Notes: generated by a model not told the origin, from the letters alone. 64,000 nt of DNA from Candidatus Kapaibacterium sp. (GCA_018882585.1 VFFB01000003.1:10359-74358), one strand, 5' to 3'. Counted from the first letter of the stretch, positions 1-45,160 are shown. Program-made: numbers and translations.

Positions 1-59
1 TGTCACGTCCTTCAGTACCTGATGCGTCCGAAACGTTTTATGTAGTGCGTTGACTGTGA

Positions 60-1316
60 TCATGGCTGCATCGTTGAAGGTCGCATGAGTGGTTTGGAGT
101 CCACGAGTGTTTCGGGCGTCATTGTTGGGATGATGCGTTCCGTCAGATCAAGGATCGTGATGAATGCCGTGTGCATTAGGATGACGGCCGATGGCATCTG
201 TTCGACAAGCAAAGCGTACAGGCGTACGGGGTGATATGGCACGTCGCCATATCCATCACGGTCAAGGTCGTAGCCGTCGTATGCGCTCCAGTAGTTCTCA
301 CGGAACAGGTTGTTGGATTCGCGTGTGCCGGTCGTTACATCGAAGGTATTACCGTCGAATGCGTTGTTGGTTATTGTGTTCAGCTCGCATCCACCAAGGA
401 TGCGAAGGCCATAGCCATTGCGAACAAAGGTGTTGTTGTGCATAAGGATCCGACTCGCCTGCTCGCCATGAATGGCCACGCTGTTGTGCACAAATCGGTT
501 GCCGCGCAGATGGCCATCGGTGATGTCCTTGAGCAGCAGGCCGTACGATGTTGGCCCCCAGTTATGCTGGAAGTTGTTGTCGAACATTTCGATCCACTTT
601 GAATACATCACGGCAACGCCGGCACCATTGTACTCGAACGTATTCGTTTTGTACGAGCACGAGTCCGAAAACATGAAGTGCAGACCGTATCGGGCATTAC
701 GCCAGCTGTGGTTGCGCATGACCGTGCCATGCCGCATGAACTCAAAGTAGATGCCGTCCCGATGTCCCGAGACGCTGTTGTCACTCACCAGAATATCTCG
801 ACACGTCCACGCATGGATGCCATTACCGGAATTGGATTCATCGCGCTCGGTTCCAATGATCGTGTTACCTGTGACTCTACAGTTGCTGCTCTTGCTAAGG
901 TAGATCGCGAAGAAGCCATTTTCGATACGACAGTTTGTGATCGCAACGCGCTGACGCTGGATGACCTTGATGGCAGCGTTATCGTCGACGTAGCTGACGG
1001 CGACATTGCGGATCGTGAGGTTGCGTATGGCAACATCATCGGCGTTCACCAACAGGATCGAGCTTCCGGTGGAAGCGGCGTCGATGACTGCACCGGGCTG
1101 GCCTAGCAGTGTGATCGATGTGCGAATGTCAAACGTGTGGCCACGGTGCACTCCGGGCATCACACGAATTGTGTCGCCGTTGGCTGCCACCGAAAGCAGA
1201 TGGCGCAGTGTGTTTTCGCCGCCGGGATATGCCCGGTGCATTTTCGAAGAGGCGCTGTATGGGAGTAGCAGGCCAAGAGTCACAAGAGCGAGCGATATGT
1301 GCAGTGATGCATTCAA
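60..1316 (-). CDS. nosD: NosD, periplasmic right-handed beta-helix accessory protein for N2O reductase maturation
   Basis: 418 aa with a signal peptide and many parallel beta-helix repeats rich in N/G (NxxG...I..N), typical of NosD/CASH-domain proteins. It is co-oriented with nosZ/nosL in the same cluster. The start is a TTG in the ORF track, so the true start is uncertain. The stop of the upstream gene overlaps it by 4 nt. Confidence 0.8.
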   Translation of the reverse strand: MNASLHISLALVTLGLLLPYSASSKMHRAYPGGENTLRHLLSVAANGDTIRVMPGVHRGHTFDIRTSITLLGQPGAVIDAASTGSSILLVNADDVAIRNLTIRNVAVSYVDDNAAIKVIQRQRVAITNCRIENGFFAIYLSKSSNCRVTGNTIIGTERDESNSGNGIHAWTCRDILVSDNSVSGHRDGIYFEFMRHGTVMRNHSWRNARYGLHFMFSDSCSYKTNTFEYNGAGVAVMYSKWIEMFDNNFQHNWGPTSYGLLLKDITDGHLRGNRFVHNSVAIHGEQASRILMHNNTFVRNGYGLRILGGCELNTITNNAFDGNTFDVTTGTRESNNLFRENYWSAYDGYDLDRDGYGDVPYHPVRLYALLVEQMPSAVILMHTAFITILDLTERIIPTMTPETLVDSKPLMRPSTMQP

Positions 1317-3316
1317 AGGTCAATTCGCAGGCCGGCGTGCACGGCTCTGCCTGCAACTGGGATGTTGTTGATGCTGGTGTGCTCGTGGTAGAGCCTGTTG
1401 GTGAGGTTCGTCATGCCACACTGCAGGCGCATGTACCGCAGTACCTGCCATGCCACGAGGACATCGGCGCGCCACCATGACGGAGTGGTGTCTTCCGGCT
1501 GGATGACCTGCGATGCACGTGGCTGGCCAACCGCAGCCGTAAGTGTCATCTCTGCCTGCAGCGACTCTGTTCCCAACACATTCCGCCATGTCATGCTAAC
1601 CGGGGCTATGAACGGCAATGGGTCGCGATAGCGTTCGCTGACACCCCACGTAGCCCTGATGGCGCCCTGCGTGCTCCACCATGAGGCGACGGCTGCGGAG
1701 GAGCTCAGGTCAAAGCCGTAGAAGACCGCTCGACCGATGTTGGCCATGGAGCGTGCCGGCAGACCATTTTCGACAAACAGGTTGGGAGCAGGGTTGGGTG
1801 CGATGTAGTCATCGATCATGCGGACATAACCCGAGCCGGTGATGCGCAAGCCGTTAACGCGATATGTGAACCGTGCCGTGGCACTCAGCGCCGACTCGTT
1901 GCGCAGCCCCGGATTTCCATAGGTGACAATGCCCGATTGTGGATCAAAGACCATGAAGCCGTAGAGCTCAAGGTGCGTCGGCATCCGTTGCGCATAGCCT
2001 GCCGTCAACGAACAGGTCATGTCTTCGGCGACGTCGTACGTACCTCCGATCGTTGCCGATACCGTTCCTTTCGTTCCATCGAGCAATGCCCCGGGGTAGT
2101 AACCGGAAAGCATGCTCCTGAACGATGGGTCTTGAACGGATCGAGATGCAATATCGGCACGCGCTGTTGCCTGCAACGAAAGGTCGCAGTTGACGGCAAC
2201 GTCGTAGGAGCCGGTAAGACCTATCTGCTGAACGCGCACGTCGCCTATGTTCGTCATCTGCATGATAGCCACCGACGTGTCGAACGGAACCATATCCATC
2301 GTTGCGTTCGCAGCCATGCTCGTGGCATCCACGGTCAGCGTTGTTACCGACGTTGATGATGTGATCGTGGACTCAAAGAGTGCCCCAATGACGCTGGTTG
2401 TGCCGTACATGGGCATGTACATGCTTGGCATGAAGGAACGTGAAGCGATCTCGGAGGTTGGACGTTGGTAATCGTCCATCACATGGTTTACGCTGTTCGC
2501 ATACAGTTTCAGCGAGGTGTTGGTGTTTTGTGACCACCGTTCACGCCATGTGACCGAGCCGATCAAGGCATCTGCCCGACGCGTATCCATTAGCAGTGAC
2601 GGATAGCCAACATCGTGGGCATGGTCAGCGATGACGCTTGCCACGAGCTCGCCGCCCTCTCGCAATCGCCATCCTGCCGATACATGCAGGTTCTGCTTTG
2701 CATACCCGCTGAGAGGCAGTTCGACTCCATTGGCCGCAACCATGTTGTCCACCGAGCGCTGCGTATATCCAGCACGGATTGCAACGTCGTCGGAACCCAC
2801 ACCCACATCGACTCGCACTCTGCGTGCAAACGCATTCGACGCCATCGAAAGATCAAGGGTGCTGTGAAGGGGCGAGGCATACCGAGGTTGCTGCGTAAGG
2901 AAGTTGAGCGATCCACCGAGTTGTTGTCCATATCGCAAGTCGGACCCGACAGTATTCACGTGCATCGTTGCAACATTGTCGACCTCGACGTATGCCGTTG
3001 CCGGGTCCATCTTGTCGACACATGCCGCGTGAATCTTCATGCCGTCGATCGTCGTCGAAACCTGGCCGCCGCGAAGGCCCATCATCGTGACTTCGCCAGC
3101 GAAACCATTCGCGCGCTGCACCAGGGAAAGACCGATGAAGCGCATCAGATCATCGATCGAAGCTGTTGTCGAGATCGACCGATCCTGCCGCCAAGGCTGC
3201 GTGAGCGGGTCGGCATGTACGACAACATCGGACGCACGATACGTATGGATGCTGTCCTGAGCCGTCGCGCCTGCAACGCCGAACATCAGAATCGCAACGA
3301 TGACGGCCACATGCAT
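1313..3316 (-). CDS. TonB-dependent outer-membrane receptor (candidate NosA/OprC-like copper importer)
   Basis: 667 aa with a signal peptide (AGATAQD), a TonB-box-like DVVVHAD, a plug region, and a long C-terminus rich in beta-strands ending GRAVHAGLRIDL. It is embedded between nosL and nosD. Confidence 0.75.
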   Translation of the reverse strand: MHVAVIVAILMFGVAGATAQDSIHTYRASDVVVHADPLTQPWRQDRSISTTASIDDLMRFIGLSLVQRANGFAGEVTMMGLRGGQVSTTIDGMKIHAACVDKMDPATAYVEVDNVATMHVNTVGSDLRYGQQLGGSLNFLTQQPRYASPLHSTLDLSMASNAFARRVRVDVGVGSDDVAIRAGYTQRSVDNMVAANGVELPLSGYAKQNLHVSAGWRLREGGELVASVIADHAHDVGYPSLLMDTRRADALIGSVTWRERWSQNTNTSLKLYANSVNHVMDDYQRPTSEIASRSFMPSMYMPMYGTTSVIGALFESTITSSTSVTTLTVDATSMAANATMDMVPFDTSVAIMQMTNIGDVRVQQIGLTGSYDVAVNCDLSLQATARADIASRSVQDPSFRSMLSGYYPGALLDGTKGTVSATIGGTYDVAEDMTCSLTAGYAQRMPTHLELYGFMVFDPQSGIVTYGNPGLRNESALSATARFTYRVNGLRITGSGYVRMIDDYIAPNPAPNLFVENGLPARSMANIGRAVFYGFDLSSSAAVASWWSTQGAIRATWGVSERYRDPLPFIAPVSMTWRNVLGTESLQAEMTLTAAVGQPRASQVIQPEDTTPSWWRADVLVAWQVLRYMRLQCGMTNLTNRLYHEHTSINNIPVAGRAVHAGLRIDL

Positions 3317-3318
3317 GC

Positions 3319-4104
3319 TTACTTCACACTCACTGGATACGAAACACTGAACTGCTGTCCACCGGGAACATCAACCGTTGCATCAATCTGCCAGTCGCCG
3401 GTCATCGTATAATTCACCTGGCCCGAGTACCAGCCATTGCTGCGCGAGACGGGTTGCACATTGCCATGACTGCCATGACCCATGGATGGCATGGAAGGAT
3501 TGAACGATACTGTGGCATCGTTGACGGGAATGAAGTCAAAACCGTCCATCGTCTTGTACAGGCCGAACTTGATATCATTCAGTCCCACCTTTTCTGTTGG
3601 ACATTGCAGGGCAATGACATACTTCATGCCCGAGGCATCCATGCCTGTCCGGACGCGCTCGGCAGCGCCCACAGGCACCACAACGGTCACCTCACCAGAC
3701 GAGTCGTGGTCGTTGTCGTGGAATTTGATCGTGATGGTCCATGCCGTTGTGGACGGCATGGTAAACAGTGCAGCTGTATGGTAGTATCCCTGTTGGTCGG
3801 GACTTGTACCAACCGGTTGATCAACGGGACAGGCGTGATGGTGCATTCCCATGTCCATATCAGAGATGATGGTCACGGTTGCATTCGTTACCACAGATCC
3901 ACTGTGCTTGAGACGCACATACAGGGGCGTGTATCCTACGGTGATCAGCCCTTCTGCAAGAAGGTCAACGGTGTATCCCTGAGTATCCGAAGACGCGATA
4001 AGCGATAATGTTGGCCCATCTACATTCGGAGCTGGTTCCGTGACCTGCGTACAGGCCACCAATCCCATGGCGATCACAATGGCAATAACTAGATGTCGGT
4101 ACAT
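3319..4104 (-). CDS. Met/His-rich lipoprotein, putative Cu(I)-binding periplasmic protein
   Basis: 261 aa with a lipobox (LVAC). It carries the motifs MDMGMHHHACP and MPSMGHGSHGN, which resemble Met/His Cu(I) sites of CopC/CusF/PcoC-type proteins. It sits 2 nt upstream of the TonB receptor inside the nos cluster. Confidence 0.55.
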   Translation of the reverse strand: MYRHLVIAIVIAMGLVACTQVTEPAPNVDGPTLSLIASSDTQGYTVDLLAEGLITVGYTPLYVRLKHSGSVVTNATVTIISDMDMGMHHHACPVDQPVGTSPDQQGYYHTAALFTMPSTTAWTITIKFHDNDHDSSGEVTVVVPVGAAERVRTGMDASGMKYVIALQCPTEKVGLNDIKFGLYKTMDGFDFIPVNDATVSFNPSMPSMGHGSHGNVQPVSRSNGWYSGQVNYTMTGDWQIDATVDVPGGQQFSVSYPVSVK

Positions 4105-4195
4105 GGCGTTATCTGGGTAGTTATGGTGTGTAGAAATCTTGGTCGCCGGCTAACCGGTGCAACGGAAAGAAACGCGGACCAGTCTGCTGCGAGTG

Positions 4196-4642
4196 CTATT
4201 CCATCACCAACTTCACGACGTCGTCATAGCGGTGAATCGTACCGACGTAGTTGATGCGAGCACGTTCGGCATCGTGTTGTGTCGTGAACGCTGCTGCGTT
4301 CAACCCCATCGGAGAGCGTATCATGTCACTTTGGAGATACCAAGCCGAGCGTGCATCAATGAGCGTTCCCGGATTGACAAAATCTGTCACCCACAGCGAA
4401 TGAACATCGTTGCTGTTGATCGCCTTGGACTCAACGAAGTCGATCATGCACTCAGGCGAATCGAACACGTAGGTCTTCCCTGTAGACATCACTGCTTCAG
4501 CGCCAAACTTCGAGTCTGAAACGCCCATCTTGCATGCTGCGCATTGATCCTTGCCATAGCTGATCGCCTTAGGCTCCGGAGCACTGCAACCAAAGGCGCC
4601 CACGATCATAAGCAGCGCGACGAAGATTTGATGACGGCTCAT
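4196..4642 (-). CDS. nosL: NosL copper chaperone lipoprotein
   Basis: About 148 aa from the ATG at 4642, with a lipobox (GCSAPE) and size/composition typical of the NosL family. Its start overlaps the nosB stop as ATGA. Confidence 0.7.
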   Translation of the reverse strand: MSRHQIFVALLMIVGAFGCSAPEPKAISYGKDQCAACKMGVSDSKFGAEAVMSTGKTYVFDSPECMIDFVESKAINSNDVHSLWVTDFVNPGTLIDARSAWYLQSDMIRSPMGLNAAAFTTQHDAERARINYVGTIHRYDDVVKLVME

Positions 4643-5241
4643 GGAGACTGCCTTTCGGTAGCATTCACAGTTGCACGGGCGCTCCACCAAACGAATGCGC
4701 CCAGAGCAAATGCAAGGACGATGAAGCCAAAGCCGATTGACGGATATGAATGGGCTGTGAAGTTCAACAACTGCTTCGAGCCTATAAGGGGCGGCTGATA
4801 CGACATGCCGTCAATCTTAATGATGGCATGCGGGTCAAGGTTGTGACCGTAGTCATACTCCCATTGATAGAAGTCGATCATGCCAACCGTTCCTGCAGCT
4901 ACCAGAAGCATAAGCCAGACGACGATCACCCACCGCCTCCCGAGGGCCGCGGCCAGAAGGCCGAGACCCACGAGAGCGATGACAACCATCGGCATGTACT
5001 GCAGTTCCGGGATCGCATCGGGTTCGATCCGTTTCATGCCGATGTAGTGATTCAGATTGTTGATGTTGTCAAGGTCATTCGGACGAGAACCTTCGACCTT
5101 GTCAACATGAACGAAGATTCCCAGCTCACTCCCTTTCGGGTACTGCGGCGCCTCGAGCCAAATCGACCACATGGGGAATGCGAACAGTCCGAGCAGCGCC
5201 AGGGCAGCAGTTGCCATCAGCATCCGATGAAGAGCTTTCAT
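4639..5241 (-). CDS. nosB: NosB-like integral membrane protein of clade II nos clusters
   Basis: 200 aa with about 4 TM helices, located immediately downstream of nosZ, which is where nosB sits in atypical (clade II) clusters. Confidence 0.6.
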   Translation of the reverse strand: MKALHRMLMATAALALLGLFAFPMWSIWLEAPQYPKGSELGIFVHVDKVEGSRPNDLDNINNLNHYIGMKRIEPDAIPELQYMPMVVIALVGLGLLAAALGRRWVIVVWLMLLVAAGTVGMIDFYQWEYDYGHNLDPHAIIKIDGMSYQPPLIGSKQLLNFTAHSYPSIGFGFIVLAFALGAFVWWSARATVNATERQSP

Positions 5242-5250
5242 GATTGTTCC

Positions 5251-7200
5251 TTACCTCTTGTTCCACGTGAGCTGACCACTGCCGCCGTTGGAAACCCGGA
5301 CATAGCCTTGCATCTCCTGGTGGAGGGCTGAGCAGAAGTCAGAGCAATAGAAGGGATACACGCCAGCCTTCTTCGGCTCCCACACGATGGTACACGTTTC
5401 ACCCGGCATGATGAGCGCCTCGGAATTGTTTGCACCGATCACGGCGAAACCGTGAGGCACGTCCCAATCCTGCTCTAGGTTCGTCACGTGCCAGTACACC
5501 TTATCCCCCACCTTAACACCTTCGATGTTGTCCGGCGCGAAGTGTGAACGGATTGATGTCATGTACACGTGAACTTCGTTCCCCTTACGCTCGACCCGTG
5601 TGTCTGCCTCCTTATGTGTTGCGTACGGATGCTTGTTCTCCGTGATCTGATACATCTTCTTCGAGTTCTTCATGATCATGTCCGCCGGACATGCCACAGC
5701 GTAGTGTGGTTCGCCGATTGTCGGGAAGTCAAGAAGGAGCTTCATCTTGTCGCCCGAGATGTCGAAGAGTTGTGCCGACTGCGTCAGCTCCGGTCCAGTC
5801 GGGAGGTAGCGGTCCTTCGTGATCTTGTTATAAGCGATCACGTACTTGCCCCATGGCTTCGTCGAATTACCTCCGGGGATGCACAGGTGGCCGATCGAGT
5901 AATACGTCGGCACGCGGTCCACAACCTTGAAATCCTTTAGTGACCATTTCACGATCTCGGACGACACAAAGAAGGATGTGTAGGCAAATCCCTTTCCGTC
6001 GAATTCGGTGTGAAGCGGTCCAAGGCCCGGACGCTGCACTTCGCCAGCCAGACACTCCTTGTAGTTCAGAACCGGAATACCGGCGATCATTTTATCGACC
6101 TTACCACCTTCGATCGCCTTCAGCATCTTCGAGAACGACATCACAGGAATCACCGTGGCAAGCTTGCCGCCGCCAACGATGAGTTCACCGGAGGGATCGA
6201 CGTCGCAGCCGTGTGGCGACTTCGGTGTCGGCATGTAGAACAGTGCGCCCTTGATGTCATCGGCCGTAAGTACGCGCACCTGCTTCTTCATCGTATGCGA
6301 TGCGGAATGTGTTTCGTCGTTGTACACATTGTGTGCATAGTCCACGTTCATCATGCTGCCCTTACCCGCCGCAGCTAGCTCAGCGCACTTCTTCCAGTTG
6401 ATGGCAACGATGAAATCCTTGTCGTTCTGCGAGGCATTGATCTCCTTCATCGTGTTTGCCTGCTCGGAGTTGTAGCAGGACATGAACATCCAGTCCTTCG
6501 ACGGACCTTTACCTGCGCGTGCCAAGTCGTAATCGAAGCCAGGCACAAGCAGCTGGAAGTCAAGATTCATGTTGCCGCTCTTGGGGTCGACCTTCACGAA
6601 TGACAATGCCCCCTTGAATTTCTCTGAATACTGCTGGATGGAGACATCCTCCTGCGGAATCGGTACGGAGAAGCGTGTTCCTGCGACAACGTATTCCGAG
6701 TTTTCGGTCGAGAACGGCGATGAGTGGTTACCTGCGGCGTTCGGGATCTCGATGATCTCCTTCGTGCGGAAATCTGTAAGGTCAATACGGGCGATGCGTG
6801 GCGTGTTGTTACCGTTGATGAAGACCCATTTGCCGTCGGCTACACCGCCTGTCTGCGACATATCTGGGTGGTGTGCATCGTCCCACGGTACGAAGCCGTG
6901 CGATGTCATCAGCATCGGTTTTGTTTCTTCGGTGTATCCCCAACCCTTTTCGGGATCAACGGAGAAGACAGGTATCACGCGGAACAAACGACCGCTGGGC
7001 AAACCGTAAACGGCGAGCTGACCGCTGAAGCCGCCTGATACGAAGTTGTAGAATTCGTCCTTCTCGCCGGGAGCTACATAGACACGGGATGCCGCATCTC
7101 CGCTGAGAGCGCCGCCTCCAGCCTCGTTGTTTCCGGAACAAGACATGATCAATGCAGAAACTGCAAGGACCATGAGCCGAAGTAGTGTTTGCGTCGACAT
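5251..7200 (-). CDS. nosZ: Nitrous-oxide reductase NosZ, clade II (Sec-dependent)
   Basis: 649 aa. The C-terminal cupredoxin CuA motif is HGFAV...CSDFCSALHQEMQGY (H-C-C-H-M). It has an N-terminal beta-propeller with DDAHHP. The signal peptide MSTQTLLRLMVLAVSALIMSCSG has no twin-arginine motif and a lipobox-like end, which fits clade II. Confidence 0.95.
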   Translation of the reverse strand: MSTQTLLRLMVLAVSALIMSCSGNNEAGGGALSGDAASRVYVAPGEKDEFYNFVSGGFSGQLAVYGLPSGRLFRVIPVFSVDPEKGWGYTEETKPMLMTSHGFVPWDDAHHPDMSQTGGVADGKWVFINGNNTPRIARIDLTDFRTKEIIEIPNAAGNHSSPFSTENSEYVVAGTRFSVPIPQEDVSIQQYSEKFKGALSFVKVDPKSGNMNLDFQLLVPGFDYDLARAGKGPSKDWMFMSCYNSEQANTMKEINASQNDKDFIVAINWKKCAELAAAGKGSMMNVDYAHNVYNDETHSASHTMKKQVRVLTADDIKGALFYMPTPKSPHGCDVDPSGELIVGGGKLATVIPVMSFSKMLKAIEGGKVDKMIAGIPVLNYKECLAGEVQRPGLGPLHTEFDGKGFAYTSFFVSSEIVKWSLKDFKVVDRVPTYYSIGHLCIPGGNSTKPWGKYVIAYNKITKDRYLPTGPELTQSAQLFDISGDKMKLLLDFPTIGEPHYAVACPADMIMKNSKKMYQITENKHPYATHKEADTRVERKGNEVHVYMTSIRSHFAPDNIEGVKVGDKVYWHVTNLEQDWDVPHGFAVIGANNSEALIMPGETCTIVWEPKKAGVYPFYCSDFCSALHQEMQGYVRVSNGGSGQLTWNKR

Positions 7201-7236
7201 GTGGTTACTCCACGTTAGTTGAAGTTGGTGTTCTTG

Positions 7237-7680
7237 TTACTGCGCGCTTTTTGCGTGATCGCGCAAGTGTTCCAGTACGTTCCGAGCGTCCTTTTCATCG
7301 ACACTCTGATTCGGCATCTTCATCAGGAATTCCTGCATCAAGCACTTGACCGTATCGTCGTTTTCGATCATTGTCTCGGTGTCGAGAATCATGTTCATGA
7401 CGTACTCGGGTGTTCTGCGCTGCGTAACCTTGCCAAGGGCTGGTCCAACGTAGCGTTCATCGTATTTGTGACAGGCATTGCATTTCATGTCAAAGATCTC
7501 CTTGCCCGCCTTGGACATCGTGCCGTCTATTCCTTCGCCAATGTCGACATGCTGGATCTTGCCGTAGGTCTTCTTCGGCTGTTGAGCTTCCATGAACGAT
7601 TTGTTCTCTGCCGACTCTCCGTTGTTACCACTACAGGCAACAAGCCAGAGAGCTGTAAACAGGAGCATGAAGTACTTCAT
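7237..7680 (-). CDS. c-type cytochrome (cy-c) of nos cluster, lipoprotein
   Basis: From the internal ATG MKYFMLLFTALWLVACSG (lipobox), with a single CNACH heme-binding site. It is positioned directly upstream of nosZ, as in clade II clusters. The ORF-track 5' extension lacks a signal peptide and is unlikely. Confidence 0.8.
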   Translation of the reverse strand: MKYFMLLFTALWLVACSGNNGESAENKSFMEAQQPKKTYGKIQHVDIGEGIDGTMSKAGKEIFDMKCNACHKYDERYVGPALGKVTQRRTPEYVMNMILDTETMIENDDTVKCLMQEFLMKMPNQSVDEKDARNVLEHLRDHAKSAQ

Positions 7681-7697
7681 GATTGTCTCCAAGTGAG

Positions 7698-8390
7698 TTA
7701 GTAGGTGATGAGTGTGTCGAGGTTGTTCTGCGTCAGACGAGGAAACAGTATCGAGTTCTCCAGGAACACGTGCTGCATGGTGTCGGTATAGAATTGTTGC
7801 ATGCCAAGGTAGGCTGCCCGGTGCGTCGTACATGCCGAGGCAGGAGGCACAAAGTCGTTTGTGATCGCACGTAGACGTTGCAGCTTCATACCCACCTCAT
7901 CGTGTTCGGATTCATGTCTACGGATGTTCGCAACCGTGTCATTTGTTAACACTGGCATAGTGCCAGCAACAAGGACCTCGGCTTCTTCCTTGTCCATGTG
8001 AATGATCATTGATTGCCGGAGATCCTGAAGCAATTCCAGAATGGATTGAGCTTCGGCAAAACGCTCGCCATGCTTGCTGACCACTTTTGACATTTGCTCG
8101 ATCACTCTATTCAGAGCTACGCGAGCAAAGGCGTGGTGATTCTCGATCAGGAACTTGATCAGAAACTCCGTTGACCATTCTTCCGGGTGGATACTCCGGA
8201 ACACATCTGTCGAATCGGCTGCGTTGATCTCGCCCAGGACTTTCTGCGCATCCAGCGAGCGTTCACGGCATGCTACATCCAGCGGCCGATTACCTCCACA
8301 GCAGAAATCAAGGTTGTATCGATGGAATACGTTTGCTGCTGCCGGAACTTCCCGAAGGATGTTGCTGATAGTTGTCGATGCGTTGTACAT
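7698..8390 (-). CDS. Repair-of-iron-centres di-iron protein (RIC/YtfE/ScdA family)
   Basis: The N-terminal ScdA_N motif is NLDFCCGGNRPL, about 25 aa from the ATG at 8390. The C-terminal part is hemerythrin-like (H...E...H motifs, ENHHAF, HMDKEE). Confidence 0.8.
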   Translation of the reverse strand: MYNASTTISNILREVPAAANVFHRYNLDFCCGGNRPLDVACRERSLDAQKVLGEINAADSTDVFRSIHPEEWSTEFLIKFLIENHHAFARVALNRVIEQMSKVVSKHGERFAEAQSILELLQDLRQSMIIHMDKEEAEVLVAGTMPVLTNDTVANIRRHESEHDEVGMKLQRLRAITNDFVPPASACTTHRAAYLGMQQFYTDTMQHVFLENSILFPRLTQNNLDTLITY

Positions 8391-8433
8391 AGTGATAAGG
8401 GAGTCGCGTATCACCAATCGCAAACAAAAAAAT

Positions 8434-8886
8434 TCACGCGATGCGCGAGCCTTTTATCTGAATGCGCGTGGCAATGTCCGCTAATGTCGTTGAAGAAAAC
8501 ATGAGTTTAAGTCTGTTGCGCTCGGTTGACCAAGCGGTATGCATTGGACAGGGTTTTTCCTCTCCGCAGCCTGGTAATCCTAGAAGACACTCCTTAAAAA
8601 TGTCGTCACCGTCAATCGCCGCCATGATATCAAGAAGCGCGATCTGCCGTGGGTCCTTCGCAAGGGCAACACCTCCACGAGCACTGCGCTGCGAAGCGAT
8701 GATTCCCTGTTGTGCCAGCTCTGCCATCACTTTTTTAAGAAAGTGAAACGGTATCGACAGTGCCGTAGCGATCTCTGAGATCGGCCTGTACAGATCGCCA
8801 TTCGCATGCACAGCCAAGTATGCACATGCTTGAATGGCATACCGTGTTGACTTGGTAAGGAGGGCTGAGTGATGCGAGCGGGTCAT
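8434..8886 (-). CDS. Rrf2-family transcriptional regulator (NsrR/IscR-like, 3-Cys Fe-S)
   Basis: N-terminal wHTH (LTKSTRYAIQACAYLA). There is a C-x6-C-x5-C cluster (KECLLGLPGCGEEKPC) like Fe-S Rrf2 sensors. It is the first gene of the nos/RIC operon. Confidence 0.85.
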   Translation of the reverse strand: MTRSHHSALLTKSTRYAIQACAYLAVHANGDLYRPISEIATALSIPFHFLKKVMAELAQQGIIASQRSARGGVALAKDPRQIALLDIMAAIDGDDIFKECLLGLPGCGEEKPCPMHTAWSTERNRLKLMFSSTTLADIATRIQIKGSRIA

Positions 8887-9157
8887 AACGATTAGGGATA
8901 GGAGAGTCTTGTATCACGAATATAGCACCGGAATACATTCTGAACAAGTAGTAGGCGTCCGATCGCGTCATGCAATGCATCGGCACGACGAACACGGCTT
9001 TTGTTTGGCATAAGCACTCATGACGGCAGCTCGGGTATATACGGGCCTATAGCTACCCATGAGCAAGCGCCCGCAGGTACAAGGTACTGCGAGCGCTTTG
9101 CTTTTCTCAGAGGGTCATTCTCGACACAGGGGCGCAGCCGTACACTGCCGATCTCAA

Positions 9158-22423: not shown

Positions 22424-24364
22424 TCATTTATCGGCCGGCGTCACAAAGCGCTTCCATGGCCCCTGCCAAAGGACGCGCTCCTGCGGTGGTACTCCGCGTA
22501 GCCACCACGATTGCCCGTCGGAGTCCAGGCTGACCGTCGAAACGTAGACGGCTGTCGCCGGTACGGTTGGTTGACACAACCGAAACGATGCCGGCAATGC
22601 AGAAGACGTGATCCACTCATGCGAGGTCTGCATGCCTGCAGAAGCATCCATGGTTGCAGCTTCACGCAACAGCACCCGTGCAGGGTCGGTCACAACGCGG
22701 CCACCCTCGGCATCTGCCACCGTCATTCGAACGTCGAACGTCTGCTGTAACGCTTGCGCCGCTTCGACGCTTTCCCGCATCGACCATGTAAGTTGCTCGG
22801 GAACCGGCCCGCTACCTGTCCGCGCAAAGACTGTCTTCCCTTGCGAGGTCACCTCGACCGTCCATGCCACGATCGGTGCGTCTGCAACGACTTCCGGATA
22901 CATCCGCACCGTAGGGAGTGTTGCTTCGACAGTTGTATCTACACGCGTGATCGGGCCGATTACCTCGCACGATGGATCCACGATGACCATCTGCGACGTA
23001 TCGCCGCCAGTGCTCTGATCATGACGAATGCGCTTCGCATCCACGCCAAAGGTTGCACGCAGATACGCACGTACAGCGGCCACCCGTTCGTTGCCCAAGG
23101 CAGTATCACCCGACGTCTGCAGTGTGATCGATATCCGAGCTTTGCGGCGTAGGCGCCAGCCGATGGTGTTCAAAAGGTTGTGCTGCATGTGCGGGGCCGC
23201 GGTGTCGATAACATCACGGTCAGCGAAGGCGGCCGCCTGCGACGGCGTCAAGCGCACGTAACGATCGGGGATTCGAGATCCGGTGTCAAACACAACAACA
23301 GGTATCATCGGCACCGTACGCGCATGCTTCCGCCGCTTCGTCTCGATAACTGCGTCCGTGCGTTCGATACCGTCCGCATCGACGAACACCACGCGAATAG
23401 AGCCGTCAAGGATGGCAGGGGGCTTCGGAAGAACCTTTCGGTATCGCTCGGTGACGGTGATCGTGTTGAGCGTGTCGTTCACGACCACGGCGGAGCCCAC
23501 GATCCTGTCTATGAGTGACGGTGTCGGCTCGGCCATCCCCGGTTGAAGTACCGTGATTGTGTCACGCACATACAGCGTATCGGTACGGATCGTCGGCAAT
23601 GACGGCGGTGGCACTGTCTCCTGCGGACTGAACCGCAAGGCCAGGCCGACGTCGAACGACACGTCTCGCCACGCCACATCGCCATGTATCGACAGCGGCG
23701 TGACCGCCGCGCCAACATGTGGCACGAGCTGCCACGAGTTTCCGACGAGGGATATCGCGTAGTTCAGACGAAGCCGGACCAAGGGAACCATGAATCGTAG
23801 TCCGGGAACGTTGCCCGCTGAAGTTACCTGTTGCGTCGAGCCGTCGCTGAACAGCAGGCCTGCCGGATCAACAAACCGCTCTGTTTGCCGATGCGTTGCC
23901 GAGAGAATTGCCATCAGCGGTATACCGGCATCAAGCCATAAGGAATTTGTTGCCTTCCACCGAAGGAATGGCTCGAGGCCGACCAGCGTGACGTTGGCTG
24001 TCAGGCGATGCTCAATGGTAGCAGCATAGACAGAGTCGGCCACTGCGATTGGCACTCGCTCCAAGGCTTTCCATGCGGCAAATGTGCTGCCGGCCGTCAG
24101 GCGGATGCCGCCAAAGAATCCATTCGAAAGCTTCATATCGACTGCGGCGTAGCCGAATCCCCGCAGATATTGTTCGTCGGAGACGAACGACAGTGGACCC
24201 GGCGCAGGGATGCCTGGAATGGTTGACATCGTTCCCACGGCATCGCGCAGCGATACACCGCCCCCTACCTCATAGCTCAACGCTCCGCGCTGTGAGCGCA
24301 GCGGGACGGCAGCGATGGCAAGGATGCAGGTAAGGAGTCCGGCAAGGCGCAACGGCGTCATCAT
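22424..24364 (-). CDS. Outer-membrane protein with N-terminal beta-barrel-like region and OmpA-like peptidoglycan-binding domain
   Basis: Signal peptide plus an OmpA_C-like core (VFDTGSRIPD...NERVAAVRAYLRATFGVDAKRI). It lies immediately downstream of the T9SS cargo gene 24386-26194. Confidence 0.55.
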   Translation of the reverse strand: MMTPLRLAGLLTCILAIAAVPLRSQRGALSYEVGGGVSLRDAVGTMSTIPGIPAPGPLSFVSDEQYLRGFGYAAVDMKLSNGFFGGIRLTAGSTFAAWKALERVPIAVADSVYAATIEHRLTANVTLVGLEPFLRWKATNSLWLDAGIPLMAILSATHRQTERFVDPAGLLFSDGSTQQVTSAGNVPGLRFMVPLVRLRLNYAISLVGNSWQLVPHVGAAVTPLSIHGDVAWRDVSFDVGLALRFSPQETVPPPSLPTIRTDTLYVRDTITVLQPGMAEPTPSLIDRIVGSAVVVNDTLNTITVTERYRKVLPKPPAILDGSIRVVFVDADGIERTDAVIETKRRKHARTVPMIPVVVFDTGSRIPDRYVRLTPSQAAAFADRDVIDTAAPHMQHNLLNTIGWRLRRKARISITLQTSGDTALGNERVAAVRAYLRATFGVDAKRIRHDQSTGGDTSQMVIVDPSCEVIGPITRVDTTVEATLPTVRMYPEVVADAPIVAWTVEVTSQGKTVFARTGSGPVPEQLTWSMRESVEAAQALQQTFDVRMTVADAEGGRVVTDPARVLLREAATMDASAGMQTSHEWITSSALPASFRLCQPTVPATAVYVSTVSLDSDGQSWWLRGVPPQERVLWQGPWKRFVTPADK

Positions 24365-24385
24365 TGCCGTAAAGATACCGCGGCA

Positions 24386-26194
24386 TTACCGCATGACGAC
24401 AAGGCGGACGACGCTGTTGAGGGTATCGCCGTCGACTCCGCGCACAGCAAGGCGGGCATAGTACGAACCCGGTGTGATCACAACGTCGGCACCCGAGGAA
24501 GCACCAAGCGTGAATGTCGTCGTACCAGCCTGCAGCGCAGCACTCAGGTCAGCAACGATACGGCCCATTGCATCGACGATGACAAGTCTGCCGACATTGG
24601 TCGGAACATTCACCACGCGCAGCGTGGCTTCGACGTCGATGGGATTCGGTTCAACAACGATATCAAGCGGCCCTTGCAGGGTGTTCACCCTGCGCTGACC
24701 GCCGGCATGCTGCCAGGCGTCGCCAAGAATGACCGTCGTCGCCGCACGCGTTGTCATCGAATCGGCAAGATCTTCGGCTGCACCGCTGGCAAGGCGATAC
24801 GCTGCTGCTGCGATGGCGACGTCGCTGCGGTCGTCGTCGCCCAGGACGGCAATAAAGGCAATCGCCATGATGGTGTCGCCGGTTGACACGGCATCACCGG
24901 CAGACCGTTCGACGTTGAACGTCGCAAGCTGCACATCATTGGCAGAGCTTCGGCCCGAGAACGTAGCCAACGGCGAAGATATCGGAACCAGGATGGACGG
25001 ATTGTACGAGACCGTGCATTGCATGGATGTGAGGGCTACCGAAACCGTGGTCGACGAGCTTTGAACATCAGCGACCACAGGCAGGCGAACGGTATCACCG
25101 ATCCGTACTGTTTGGGCGGCATCTGCAAACCCTGCGCGCAGCACAACCTTCGGATCAGGTGGGCGCGTTGCGCGGCCTTGGACCGTTATCAGGGTGGAGT
25201 CAATGGCACGACCTCGGTGCAGCCGTCGCAACGAGAATGTTCGCTGATAGGATCCGGTAACGAGCGGCGAGCAGGAAAACTGGGTCGTGATTCGTGTAGA
25301 CGTGGACGGTACCTTCGGTTGCGTGACCATGCCCTCGACCGGGCCGTTATCCAGGGCCACGAGGGCATACTCGTAGAGTGATCGTGGAGCGATGGGCAGA
25401 TCGATCTCTTCGGTTGCGACCGTCGTAGAGCCAGTCACAACATCATCGGCAGTCACGGTACGACTCTTCGGCATCTGACGACCAACGCCGACGAGCTTGC
25501 ATATCAGCGAATCCAGAATCACGCCGTCTTCTCGTTTTCGCAAAACGGTAACGGTTTCGGAACTCCGCCCTTCTGTCATTGGTCCGAACTCAAAGATCAG
25601 TCCGGCCGAGTCGTTATTGATGCGCCGTGGACCATTTCGCGTGAGTATATCAAACGGCGGCTTCGGTGCAGCGATCTGCCAGATGGTATTGGGCATTTCC
25701 ACGATCTCGCGCGGCATGAGCACTGCTCTTCGGACCGTATCGCCGGTAAGCACTTCGCCGAAGTTCACATCGGCGGTACGCGAAGCACTGACTCCTACGC
25801 CGTACAGACGCACTACGATGCGGTCGAACGGCGTGTATCGCACCATCACGATACTGTCGCGCCACTCGCCTGATCGCGTCGGAGCGAACGAAGCGAACAC
25901 GTCTACGCTGCGGCCATTGATCGGGATCGTATCACCGCGCTGACCCGGTTGGGGGTCAACATGAAAGGGAGGATCCGGATACTGAATGATCACAAACGCT
26001 TCACGGTAGTCGCCGCCCGGTCGCAACTGCACGTCTTCGCGACCATGCTCAACGCTGCCAAGCAGCGTTGGCCGAAAGGACATGCGAGCTTCATAGCGAT
26101 CTTGCGGCAACAGGTCACCGTCGGGTGCGGCAATGCCCCCTGAGACCTGCATCATGCAGATGATGATCGAAACCAGCAGAAAACGGATTGACAT
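24386..26194 (-). CDS. Secreted protein with type-A T9SS C-terminal domain
   Basis: Signal peptide. The C-terminus VVEPNP...LVIVDAMGRIV...GSYYARL is a type-A T9SS CTD. No catalytic motifs were recognised. Confidence 0.6.
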   Translation of the reverse strand: MSIRFLLVSIIICMMQVSGGIAAPDGDLLPQDRYEARMSFRPTLLGSVEHGREDVQLRPGGDYREAFVIIQYPDPPFHVDPQPGQRGDTIPINGRSVDVFASFAPTRSGEWRDSIVMVRYTPFDRIVVRLYGVGVSASRTADVNFGEVLTGDTVRRAVLMPREIVEMPNTIWQIAAPKPPFDILTRNGPRRINNDSAGLIFEFGPMTEGRSSETVTVLRKREDGVILDSLICKLVGVGRQMPKSRTVTADDVVTGSTTVATEEIDLPIAPRSLYEYALVALDNGPVEGMVTQPKVPSTSTRITTQFSCSPLVTGSYQRTFSLRRLHRGRAIDSTLITVQGRATRPPDPKVVLRAGFADAAQTVRIGDTVRLPVVADVQSSSTTVSVALTSMQCTVSYNPSILVPISSPLATFSGRSSANDVQLATFNVERSAGDAVSTGDTIMAIAFIAVLGDDDRSDVAIAAAAYRLASGAAEDLADSMTTRAATTVILGDAWQHAGGQRRVNTLQGPLDIVVEPNPIDVEATLRVVNVPTNVGRLVIVDAMGRIVADLSAALQAGTTTFTLGASSGADVVITPGSYYARLAVRGVDGDTLNSVVRLVVMR

Positions 26195-26314
26195 ACGAGT
26201 GCAAGAATCCGTTCAAGATGCAATTGTTACACGAGAAGGCAGAAACGAAACGGGGTCGCCGATGGCGACCCCGTTGTTCATGTGCGAAGCGATGCGTTTT
26301 TGGTACTCTGGCGA

Positions 26315-28984: not shown

Positions 28985-29117
28985 GTGGAAAGACCCCTCA
29001 AGAATGGATTGTAGCATGGTTGTGAGCTCCGACGGCACGTGACAGCCGTCAAGGCGAGTACTGTGGAATCAGGCGCGAGCCCAGCATGACCAGCGGACGT
29101 TACGGTTGGCCGGCGTT

Positions 29118-42364: not shown

Positions 42365-42490
42365 GGATTCTCCATAGCAGTGCCGTGCATAGTAACACGC
42401 ACGCACGAAAACACCTAACGGATTGCTCTGCGTTACACAACCTTCAGCAATGCACAGGTAGAGTCAGTCGTATCCGACGGTGGAACAGAC

Positions 42491-42528
42491 AAATGGGTGC
42501 CTGAATGGCACCCCTTTGTTGTTTATTC
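42491..42528. terminator. GC hairpin, copy 2 (duplicated with upstream unit)
   Basis: AAATGGGTGCC-TGAAT-GGCACCCCTTTG followed by TTGTTTATT. It has a one-base difference from copy 1. Confidence 0.5.
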
Positions 42529-42543
42529 GTATGTGTCGTGCCC

Positions 42544-45048: not shown

Positions 45049-45160
45049 GATTCCTCCGTAGCGGCAACACAAACCGAAACAGCATGATACGATAAGATAG
45101 CATGCATCCATCCGACCGATGTAGCAACCGTCCGTTACATTCGGCTCGCGAATACGACGG

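Follow-up and report, generated by a model that had tools for sequence, protein, structure and literature searches.

What is a TonB-dependent receptor, together with a Met/His-rich lipoprotein, doing inside an operon for nitrous oxide reduction? The question is raised by a locus in an uncultured Kapabacteria genome, contained in a stretch of 64,000 nucleotides (hereafter the window). N2O reductase (NosZ) breaks down the greenhouse gas N2O and has a high demand for copper, 12 Cu per dimer. The original prediction, made from the sequence alone, was that the two genes provide copper import across the outer membrane, in analogy to NosA/OprC, and a copper-handling lipoprotein, both encoded within the operon. 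Homology and comparative context lend this idea strong support. We consider it fairly probable that, in the window, a module for copper acquisition has been captured by a clade II nos operon. Such an arrangement is rare and undescribed, and suggests that N2O reductase has a copper supply of its own.

A clade II nos operon with two additional genes

All nine genes that had been proposed were found, on the minus strand between positions 60 and 8886 and in the order claimed: Rrf2 regulator, RIC, cytochrome c, nosZ, nosB, nosL, lipoprotein, TonB-dependent receptor and nosD. The gene set was thus correct, but the starts of RIC, cytochrome c and nosL had to be moved inward, as their probable starts lie inside the longest ORFs (at 8390, 7680 and 4642, respectively). 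NosZ (5251-7200) is of the Sec-dependent type of clade II, with 933 bits against TIGR04246 (cut-off 625) and 364 bits, under cut-off, against the Tat-type model TIGR04244. Its signal peptide is lipobox-like. The mono-haem c-type cytochrome encoded upstream (7237-7680; PF00034, CxxCH) is a predicted lipoprotein with lipobox LVAC and likely the electron donor to NosZ; in 77 of 80 loci, nosZ is preceded by a cytochrome c gene. The clade II layout was further confirmed by nosB directly after nosZ, followed by nosL, nosD and the start of nosF. The nosB-like gene (4639-5241) encodes a polytopic membrane protein that has no match in Pfam or NCBIfam, and its position is conserved: wherever a related locus extends that far, a homologue with 38-74% identity separates nosZ from nosL, the lowest identities representing partial matches at contig ends. 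The nosL gene (4196-4642; PF05573, 49 bits) encodes a copper chaperone lipoprotein, and nosD (60-1316) scores 400 bits against TIGR04247 (cut-off 300). The 5' end of nosF, encoding an ABC ATPase, is cut by the window edge (1-63, minus strand), and its translation MITVNALHKTFRTHQVLKDVT is similar to the start of NosF in locus L004. The nosY gene lies outside the window and was found in L001, L004, L167 and L168, and for L166 a single product of 500 aa was called that spans the nosF and nosY regions.

The distances between the successive genes are 43 nt from Rrf2 to RIC, 17 nt from RIC to cytochrome c, 36 nt from cytochrome c to nosZ and 9 nt from nosZ to nosB, after which the nosL ATG overlaps the nosB stop codon (ATGA, -4 nt). 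Junctions of 2-4 nt had been claimed around the two additional genes. This holds on both sides of the receptor gene, which follows the lipoprotein gene after 2 nt and whose stop codon is overlapped by the start of nosD (-4 nt), but not between nosL and the lipoprotein gene, which are 91 nt apart. The nosD and nosF genes again overlap by 4 nt, the nosF start at 63 lying over the nosD stop. The 4-nt overlap of receptor and nosD recurs in L001, L004 and L166, and amounts to 7 nt in L168. Judged by the spacing, the gene overlaps and two conserved operator-like palindromes (see below), co-transcription of the whole unit is plausible.

The gap of 91 nt could leave room for an internal promoter, a point that counts against the explanation we prefer.

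The receptor sides with the copper transporter OprC

The receptor (1313-3316), predicted to be an OprC/NosA-like TonB-dependent copper transporter, consists of a Plug domain (25 bits) and a TonB-dependent receptor beta-barrel (TonB_dep_Rec_b-barrel, 79.5 bits), and carries a TonB-box-like SDVVVHA after its signal peptide (family consensus EVVVxA). Its best NCBIfam model is that of the TonB-copper receptors (TIGR01778), with 102 bits against an equivalog cut-off of 472. In terms of sequence it is a distant subfamily of OprC/NosA and not an equivalog. The receptor in fact falls under every NCBIfam cut-off and the TonB-haemin model comes second with 81 bits, which might suggest that the cargo is haem, a siderophore, B12 or an oligosaccharide instead of ionic copper, and that the linkage to nos reflects some other need. 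We give this reading hardly any credence, considering the structural matches, the ligands and the copper-protein folds and motifs of the partner lipoprotein. In a phmmer search of the PDB, OprC was the sole match to the receptor. With the family profile it was the sole full-length match (E 6e-51), the next being PhuR (8e-28) over the C-terminal half only, so that OprC is some 23 orders of magnitude ahead of any haem, zinc or siderophore receptor.

Although the receptor is only about 22-25% identical to OprC, the HMMER alignment places its residues C99, M103, H278 and M280 on C143, M147, H323 and M325 of OprC, the CxxxM-HxM residues whose roles in the OprC copper site have been described (PMC8610252). 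These ligands were invariant in 23 of 23 relatives and subsequently in all 44 receptors paired with a lipoprotein. Four further methionines (M301, M303, M340 and M342) are likewise invariant in 44 out of 44. The segment FMPSMYMPM aligns, at the level of sequence, with MMPMPM of OprC (M339, M341 and M343). OprC gathers Cu(I) via an extracellular methionine track (PMC8610252). The receptor thus sides with OprC and not with the siderophore, B12 or haem receptors and, because it keeps the full CxxxM-HxM site as well, the expectation of a copper receptor is upheld.

The lipoprotein resembles copper-handling proteins of the envelope

The gene directly upstream of the receptor gene (3319-4104) encodes a lipoprotein with two tandem YtkA/CrdA-like Ig-fold domains. 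PF13115 (YtkA-like) matches residues 192-241 with 51.3 bits (gathering score 25.9), and its two halves, N-terminal and C-terminal, are homologous to one another (hhalign, probability 96.7%), which reveals an internal duplication. Each domain carries an invariant Met/His/Trp motif. The richness in Met and His that had been noted is real and conserved, with M83, M85, H90, M116 and M205-P-S-M-G-H210 as invariant residues. The only match in the PDB profile search was CrdA, whose Met-rich Cu(I) loop aligns with the loop MPSMGHGS. CrdA is a copper-resistance determinant (PMC9182242), and the YtkA domain has been implicated in CuA assembly in B. subtilis (PMC13344008). The motifs are probably of a kind that binds Cu(I), and a copper-handling function, as proposed, agrees with a YtkA/CtaK- and CrdA-type fold by homology. 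Taken together with the receptor, a role of the pair in copper import and delivery appears well supported by homology and context.

The side of the membrane on which the lipoprotein acts is a separate matter. It might be exposed at the surface and capture Cu(I) there, as a lid on a copper-importing receptor or as its hemophore-like partner, as in the models BtuG-BtuB, SusD-SusC and HmuY-HmuR, without a periplasmic relay to NosL or NosZ. Such an arrangement would fit the gathering of Cu(I) on the extracellular methionine track of OprC (PMC8610252) and the gene order, as the lipoprotein gene lies directly upstream of the receptor gene wherever enough downstream sequence is available (apparent exceptions are L135, L157 and L165). 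The window lipoprotein has a canonical lipobox (LVAC), and a hydrophobic signal stretch ending in Cys is found in nearly all of the approximately 85 homologues (the fragmentary L115 and L117/L120 are ambiguous). Many of the stand-alone homologues in Bacteroidota begin with C-K-K-(D/E) or C-x-K-(D/E)2 and thus look like the surface-export signal (PMC5080379). The C-x-K-(D/E)2 signal is, however, absent from all 10 nos-embedded lipoproteins, each of which begins with C-[TS]-[TSQ]-x-T-[ED]-P and so has no Lys and a single acidic residue; the topology is deduced here by a motif rule set up in Bacteroidota, not in Kapabacteria. Moreover, the characterised YtkA/CtaK and CrdA proteins act in the periplasm or otherwise outside the cytoplasm (PMC13344008, PMC9182242), and the adjacency of nosL suggests a hand-over within the envelope. 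All in all, we consider a surface-exposed lipoprotein rather unlikely, and a periplasmic one the better reading.

The pair is a widespread module that is mostly found away from nos

The original prediction held that canonical clade II clusters do not contain the two genes, and a comparative neighbourhood survey bore this out: the pair was found between nosL and nosD in none of the 73 related clade II nos clusters that possess nosL as well as nosD. In 71 of the 73 there is nothing between nosL and nosD, and the module is therefore accessory and not required. The embedded order recurs in about a dozen loci, all from metagenome-assembled genomes (L001, L004/L005, L086, L088, L089, L090, L103, L118, L166/L167 and L168). 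In L168 and L089, three additional genes are present between nosL and nosD. The embedded receptors are monophyletic and represent one lineage. Across these loci the receptors are 37-52% identical, as compared to 76-88% for nosZ where measured, and since the order is the same throughout, it has been maintained over a long divergence.

The survey also brought to light something that had not been foreseen. The pair is widespread in Bacteroidota, Ignavibacteria and Kapabacteria, where it forms an uncharacterised module that usually comes with a third gene for a small Cys-motif protein, and it represents a pre-existing mobile module that occurs mostly away from nos: some 70 of the best 80 metagenome loci with family members are not near nos. 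In 13 loci, stand-alone copies adjoin CusB/RND efflux genes, and in 4 loci Cu/Zn superoxide dismutase. One could thus argue that the pair serves copper or silver homeostasis or resistance in general and came to lie in the nos operon by chance, with no dedicated role in NosZ maturation, the more so as the nearest structure to the lipoprotein, CrdA, belongs to a resistance determinant. TonB-dependent transporters import rather than export, however, and the insertion with its overlapping junctions was kept while the receptors diverged to the extent given above. In addition, nos and the module are at most 10 kb apart in L029, L074, L116, L141 and L147, where the receptors belong to at least three other lineages. 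Since the target measures approximately 27 kb and a genome several Mb, independent juxtapositions in at least three lineages are far above chance proximity. A fortuitous insertion therefore strikes us as improbable, and the capture of the module for the benefit of NosZ as the better account.

The regulatory head is common among clade II nos clusters

The first gene of the unit (8434-8886) encodes an Rrf2-family regulator (PF02082, 102 bits; TIGR00738, 97 bits). It has the three cysteines that had been noticed, in the form CX6CX5C followed by X2H, and this CX6CX5CX2H motif aligns to the cluster-ligand positions of IscR. It fits a cluster-binding Rrf2 protein and is not specific for NsrR. The label NsrR could not be maintained: the NsrR model NF008240 scores 32 bits (cut-off 182), about 60 bits are reached with the IscR and SUF-regulator models, and in the PDB the nearest protein is IscR (E 1.7e-8; NsrR 7e-6). 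The regulator is equally close or closer to IscR, RsrR and CymR. Likewise, the proposed sensing of NO finds no support in the sequence and is suggested only by the neighbouring RIC gene. The assignment of the latter as RIC/YtfE/ScdA-type di-iron protein (7698-8390) was sound, in view of the ScdA_N (PF04405, 68 bits) and hemerythrin-like (PF01814, 54 bits) architecture and a score of 186 bits against TIGR03652, slightly below the cut-off of 205. Near clade II nos clusters, Rrf2 was found in 27 and RIC in 35 of 80 loci. The association is common and the regulatory head is accordingly not new; an Rrf2 regulator beside nos has already been recorded for Melioribacter (PMC3534657).

Two operator-like palindromes of 19 bp were identified. 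One, GATACAAGACTCTCCTATC on the minus strand (8897-8915), ends 10 nt before the rrf2 ATG, and the other, GATACGCGACTCCCTTATC on the minus strand (8394-8412), ends 3 nt before the RIC ATG. The window contains two occurrences of the pattern GATANNNGANTCNNNTATC, where 0.11 are expected. In 2.3 Mb of related loci the pattern has 10 exact matches, every one of them either before rrf2 or in the interval from rrf2 to RIC. L166/L167 and L086 carry the second palindrome at the corresponding position without mismatch, L168 and L089 with 1 mismatch. On these grounds the palindrome is a likely Rrf2 operator. Directly 5' of it, CTTGCA and TAnnTT(T/C)G separated by about 19-20 nt were observed in L001, L004, L090 and L166. 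The corresponding stretch of the window (8917-8948, minus strand), in which CTTG occupies 8945-8948 and TATATTCG, the -7 box, 8917-8924, constitutes a candidate rrf2 promoter of the Bacteroidota type. A consensus scan further indicated a weak terminator-like hairpin that spans the stop codon of rrf2 and leads into a T-run (8424-8448, minus strand). The region contains 7 hairpin sites whereas 7.4 are expected from shuffling, and the rrf2 hairpin by itself is therefore not significant.

A proposed route for copper

Given these data the following route can be envisaged. A cluster-binding Rrf2 protein would repress via the two palindromes, before rrf2 and before RIC, and its signal could be NO, O2 or the Fe-S status. 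With the operon on, the receptor would bring ionic copper across the outer membrane at the expense of TonB energy. The lipoprotein, whose nos-embedded forms lack the Bacteroidota surface-export signal, would take Cu(I) on the periplasmic side and hand it to NosL, to the NosDFY machinery or straight to the CuA site of NosZ, which would parallel the way in which CtaK/YtkA of B. subtilis supports CuA assembly in cytochrome caa3. As the pair sits between nosL and nosD, with one junction of 2 nt and an overlapping one, the copper supply would be co-regulated with NosZ and not set by the cellular copper status. Two further points weigh against this route. The link between NosA and NosZ in Pseudomonas is contested, one strain without nosA showing no NosZ defect (PMC8610252), and because CrdA is a resistance determinant, the lipoprotein domain could buffer rather than deliver copper.

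Comparison with known systems

The locus shares all genes and their order with the canonical Bacteroidota-type clade II nos cluster (cyt c-nosZ-nosB-nosL-nosD-nosF-nosY), including the Sec-type NosZ and nosB, and differs from it by the two additional genes between nosL and nosD.

The closest relatives of the receptor are OprC of P. aeruginosa and NosA of P. stutzeri (TIGR01778; PDB 6FOK). They are TonB-dependent transporters of the same plug-plus-barrel build, whose copper site (CxxxM in the plug, HxM in the barrel wall) is fully kept here and whose methionine track, in OprC, aligns in sequence with the Met cluster, and NosA has historically been tied to N2O reductase. OprC has been described as conserved in Proteobacteria, whereas the present receptor comes from Kapabacteria, Ignavibacteria and Bacteroidota. 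It is always paired with a dedicated lipoprotein, usually together with the small Cys-motif protein. In the present locus its gene forms part of the nos operon, in contrast to nosA and oprC, which are copper-repressed and unlinked to nos. CrtA offers a precedent in that it is a TonB-dependent transporter importing copper for a respiratory cuproenzyme, to which it is dedicated, and is encoded together with the copper chaperones ScoI and PCuAC. CrtA belongs to another transporter sequence cluster, however, imports chelated Cu(II) by a His-based site and not by CxxxM-HxM, and serves oxidases instead of NosZ.

For the lipoprotein the best counterparts are CtaK (YtkA) and the YtkA domain of YcnJ in Bacillus subtilis (PF13115). 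CtaK is likewise a membrane-anchored lipoprotein with a YtkA-like domain and has been implicated in the metallation of a CuA centre, which NosZ also has. It has one domain where the present protein has two in tandem, and its target is cytochrome caa3 where the proposed target here is NosZ, in a Gram-negative envelope and with an outer-membrane transporter as partner. CrdA of Helicobacter pylori (PDB 9LL2/9LL4) has the Met-rich loop that matches MPSMGHGS, but consists of one secreted domain without His and confers resistance together with an efflux system, whereas the protein described here is a two-domain lipoprotein with invariant His and an importer as its partner.

Gene content and order of the nos cluster

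The first 8.9 kb of the window contain nine co-oriented genes in the order given by the original prediction, with three start codons slightly corrected, and the gene content and order of the nos cluster can be considered established. All genes lie on the minus strand. From the 5' end they encode an Rrf2 regulator (8434-8886, recognized by Rrf2 family models), a RIC/YtfE-type di-iron protein (7698-8390, with ScdA_N and hemerythrin domains), a mono-haem cytochrome c (7237-7680, domain model), NosZ (5251-7200; TIGR04246, 933 bits versus a cut-off of 625 bits), a NosB-like protein that has no model and is conserved in synteny (4639-5241), NosL (4196-4642; PF05573), a lipoprotein with a YtkA-like domain (3319-4104; PF13115), a TonB-dependent receptor with plug and barrel (1313-3316) and NosD (60-1316; TIGR04247, 400 bits). 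The 5' start of nosF (1-63, same strand) overlaps the nosD stop. From rrf2 to nosD the spacings are 43, 17, 36, 9, -4, 91, 2 and -4 nt; the proposed junctions of 2-4 nt were thus found between lipoprotein and receptor (2) and between receptor and nosD (-4), but not between nosL and the lipoprotein gene, which are 91 nt apart. Lipobox-like signal peptides were observed in NosZ (LIMSC), cytochrome c (LVAC), NosL (AFGC) and the YtkA-like protein (LVAC), and the four proteins may therefore be tethered to the membrane together. A Candidatus Kapabacteria MAG encodes proteins 100% identical to the lipoprotein and the receptor.

Scanned against Pfam, the 20 largest remaining ORFs of the window yielded no other denitrification, copper or TonB/ExbBD genes. 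Three consecutive large ORFs on the minus strand (22424-29038; 646, 602 and 907 aa) lacked a Pfam match at E<=1e-4, and at 39824-45111, also on the minus strand, lie genes for two DUF5122 beta-propeller proteins, paralogues in tandem of 860 and 855 aa. In the Ignavibacteria MAGs the nos locus is likewise flanked by DUF5122 proteins, there carrying a T9SS sorting tail (L166/L167:1-2988; L numbers denote related loci fetched for comparison).

The receptor resembles the copper transporter OprC

The best NCBIfam model for the receptor was TonB-copper, with a score (102 bits) above those of the haemin, transferrin, B12 and siderophore models and far under the equivalog cut-off of 472 bits. Among all PDB sequences the only phmmer match was OprC of Pseudomonas aeruginosa (E 5e-11), and a profile of 23 family members matched OprC over its full length (E 6e-51), whereas the next matches, PhuR (8e-28) and ZnuD (4e-19), covered the C-terminal half only. 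The predicted grouping with copper receptors was thereby borne out: OprC was the best match, and no placement among siderophore, B12 or sugar receptors was found.

The copper site of OprC is conserved. In the HMMER alignment C99, M103, H278 and M280 of the receptor correspond to C143, M147, H323 and M325 of OprC, the residues that bind copper in its crystal structures (PMC8610252). These four residues are invariant in all 23 diverse relatives, with identity down to 24%, and in all 44 distinct receptors that adjoin a lipoprotein homologue. The same holds for M301, M303, M340 and M342, the first two of which align with the MMPMPM segment of the OprC methionine track.

The lipoprotein is a tandem YtkA/CrdA-type protein

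The canonical lipobox LVAC of the lipoprotein has its counterpart in nearly all of the approximately 85 homologues examined, whose signal stretch is comparable and likewise ends in Cys. Pfam places the YtkA-like domain in the C-terminal half, and the N-terminal half proved homologous to it (hhalign, probability 96.7%, E 3.4e-10), with the motifs MDMGxxxH...M...W and MPSMGH...M...W in register. M83, M85, H90, M116 and W122 in the first half and M205, M208, H210, M234 and W238 in the second are invariant. The AlphaFold2 model consists of two Ig-like beta-sandwiches (pLDDT 86), and the sole PDB match of the family profile was CrdA (E 9.4e-7), whose Met-rich Cu(I) loop aligns with MPSMGHGS of the lipoprotein (PMC9182242). 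The protein clearly has a CrdA/YtkA fold with conserved Met/His motifs.

In surface lipoproteins of the Bacteroidota the lipid-modified Cys is followed by C-x-K-(D/E)2 residues -x-K-(D/E)2 (motif C-x-K-(D/E)2; PMC5080379), and many stand-alone homologues, encoded away from nos genes, start with CKK(D/E)..., CxKDD or CSDDD. In contrast, all 10 nos-embedded lipoproteins, encoded between nosL and nosD, start with C-[TS]-[TSQ]-x-T-[ED]-P, which favours a periplasmic orientation in this lineage insofar as a signal rule from Bacteroidota, which may not hold in Kapabacteria, can be applied. Since that rule was derived elsewhere and the difference in start motif may simply be phylogenetic, we retain a surface-exposed lid on the receptor as the main rival to a protein facing the periplasm.

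A mobile module probably captured once by a nos operon

Among the 80 closest nosZ loci in GTDB species representatives, 73 contained both nosL and nosD, and in 71 of these the gap between them was below 400 nt. The gap was occupied in the other two, by a fasciclin lipoprotein (L050) and a haem-binding-like protein (L041). The claim that canonical clusters lack the pair at this position therefore stands (0/73); in two surveyed loci, of Flavobacterium cucumis (L029) and Chitinophaga (L074), it lies a few kb downstream of nosY.

Starting from the lipoprotein, a word-indexed homologue search returned 12 proteins only and badly underestimated the size of the family. An exhaustive profile search yielded 407 clusters (50% identity, E<=1e-30), almost all of 250-285 aa, and 306 relatives were found in metagenome contigs. 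Among the best 80 of these 306 loci, six were nos-embedded (L086, L088, L089, L090, L103, L118) and three nos-adjacent (L116, directly after nosY; L141; L147), and no nos genes were in range at the remaining ones. Further embedded cases are L001, L004, L166/L167 (Ignavibacteria MAGs; GCA_016704805.1 and GCA_016719845.1) and L168. The receptor gene follows 3' of the lipoprotein gene wherever the downstream sequence suffices, with L135, L157 and L165 as apparent exceptions. The embedded arrangement is conserved, and the linkage to nos is recurrent.

Neighbour joining of 44 receptors placed all embedded copies in one clade, with L091 and L116 as sisters, whereas the nos-adjacent L141 and L147 fall in distant clades. 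This topology indicates one capture into a nos operon and, independently of it, no fewer than two other juxtapositions. The pair, a mobile module, is nos-embedded in one lineage only. Neighbours of the stand-alone modules include a CusB-type adaptor (13 loci), RND pump genes (5) and Cu/Zn superoxide dismutase (4).

The stand-alone module normally comprises three genes: in 53 of 65 such loci the lipoprotein gene has, directly upstream, a gene for a protein of approximately 122 aa. Copies of this gene lie at L029:19309-19683 and L116:2954-3310. The protein combines a single TM helix at the N terminus with the conserved motif LCENKxKPxxxCxGKCxL and, at the C terminus, FHPP; it matches no Pfam family and may be a third component of the module that handles copper through Cys. 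A diverged copy is located between nosL and the lipoprotein gene in two embedded loci (L168:8794-9156; L089:9343-9711); the window has lost this gene.

Accessory genes seem to have been inserted repeatedly at the nosL-nosD junction. One locus (L041:2194-3303 and 3384-3863) combines a NosB-NosL fusion (369 aa) with a 159-aa CYDCH protein between nosL and nosD. A FAS1 (fasciclin) protein of approximately 183 aa recurs beside nos (L004:15573-16124; L167:14779-15327; L050:11285-11893; L029:16749-17303), after nosY in embedded loci, in the nosL-nosD gap of a Saprospiraceae MAG and, in F. cucumis, close to nosY; the window stops short of this position. In F. cucumis, genes for a globin-like and a CopD-like membrane protein directly follow nosY (L029:15866-16680; the CopD-like match, 29 bits, is slightly under the Pfam cut-off), and a Crp/Fnr-family regulator is encoded upstream of the three-gene module. 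This strain, F. cucumis DSM 18830, was the sole cultured one encountered in which the three-gene module lies some 4 kb from nosY. Many Chitinophagaceae/Sphingobacteriales clusters have some 800 nt extra, presumably one gene, between nosZ and nosB (L011:2942-3735, L013:11902-12717, L014, L016, L019, L020), a stretch absent from the window.

Regulation of the cluster

The CX6CX5CX2H motif of the Rrf2 protein aligns with the cluster ligands of IscR. The original prediction named the protein NsrR; model scores speak against this, and the name is unsupported because the protein is about equidistant from IscR, RsrR, CymR and NsrR. That it senses NO is a guess from the neighbouring RIC gene.

The operator-like palindrome GATANNNGANTCNNNTATC occurs exactly twice in the 64 kb (0.11 expected). 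One copy (8897-8915) directly follows a Bacteroidota-type TATATTCG -7 box and is separated from the rrf2 ATG by 10 nt; the other (8394-8412) is 3 nt from the ATG of RIC, on its upstream side. All 10 exact matches in 2.3 Mb of fetched loci are at the same two positions in relatives. This placement suggests that rrf2 is autoregulated and that a second Rrf2-controlled start serves RIC, cytochrome c, nosZ and the downstream genes. Such a regulatory head is ordinary for the group, considering that, of the 80 surveyed loci, 27 have an Rrf2 gene and 35 a RIC gene within 10 kb of nosZ, variously arranged, and that an Rrf2 regulator beside nos was noted in Melioribacter in 2013 (PMC3534657).

A scan for sigma-70 promoters (1 match, 6.7 expected) was uninformative, since promoters in these phyla are of other types. 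The terminator scan yielded 7 sites, equal to the shuffle expectation. The only one of positional interest is a short GC hairpin over the rrf2 stop codon, followed by ATTTTTTTGT (8424-8448) and located shortly upstream of the second palindrome. Termination or attenuation of the rrf2 transcript could occur there, but in the scan statistics the hairpin is not above chance.

Copper supply to N2O reductase

To our knowledge, N2O reductase is the sole biological sink known for N2O, and copper often limits the enzyme's activity in nature. The path of copper to NosZ across the outer membrane has been in doubt since the conflicting results on NosA of Pseudomonas. Bacteroidota and relatives dominate the clade II nosZ populations of soils and wastewater plants, and the carriers of the module, from Bacteroidota, Ignavibacteria and Kapabacteria, are common in wastewater and sediment.

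We propose, at slightly less than an even chance, that these three groups share a three-gene uptake system for ionic copper, composed of the small Cys-motif membrane protein, the tandem YtkA/CrdA lipoprotein and the OprC-like transporter, and that the nos operon of one lineage captured it as a dedicated copper line, with the lipoprotein metallating NosZ either itself or through NosL. Copper acquisition would then be a hard-wired genetic determinant of N2O-sink capacity in these bacteria. In the most likely mechanism, the receptor would import ionic copper, and the lipoprotein would bind Cu(I) at two sites and relay it to NosL, NosDFY or the CuA site of NosZ. The pair would be co-transcribed with nos, so that the copper supply would rise with NosZ synthesis.

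In the open-access literature we found no report of a clade II nos operon that includes an OprC-type or other TonB receptor, none of OprC homologues from Bacteroidota or their relatives, and none of a tandem-YtkA lipoprotein family. The analysis exposes a large unannotated, probable copper-uptake module in these phyla, extends the OprC copper site beyond the Proteobacteria and adds two candidate players, receptor and lipoprotein, to the copper supply of NosZ. An OprC-type transporter and a CtaK/CrdA-type protein encoded between nosL and nosD are an independent line of genomic evidence that copper import across the outer membrane can be dedicated to NosZ.

Against this mechanism count the absence of the module from most nos clusters and the contested link between NosA and NosZ in Pseudomonas (PMC8610252); against a relay by the lipoprotein counts that CrdA is a resistance protein. 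The known copper-importing TonB transporters are OprC/NosA, MbnT, FyuA and CrtA, and the operons of the last contain ScoI and PCuAC for oxidases (PMC12914433). The YtkA domain of B. subtilis (CtaK; the C-terminal domain of YcnJ) supports CuA assembly in cytochrome caa3 (PMC13344008), and the CuA centre is shared by this oxidase and NosZ.
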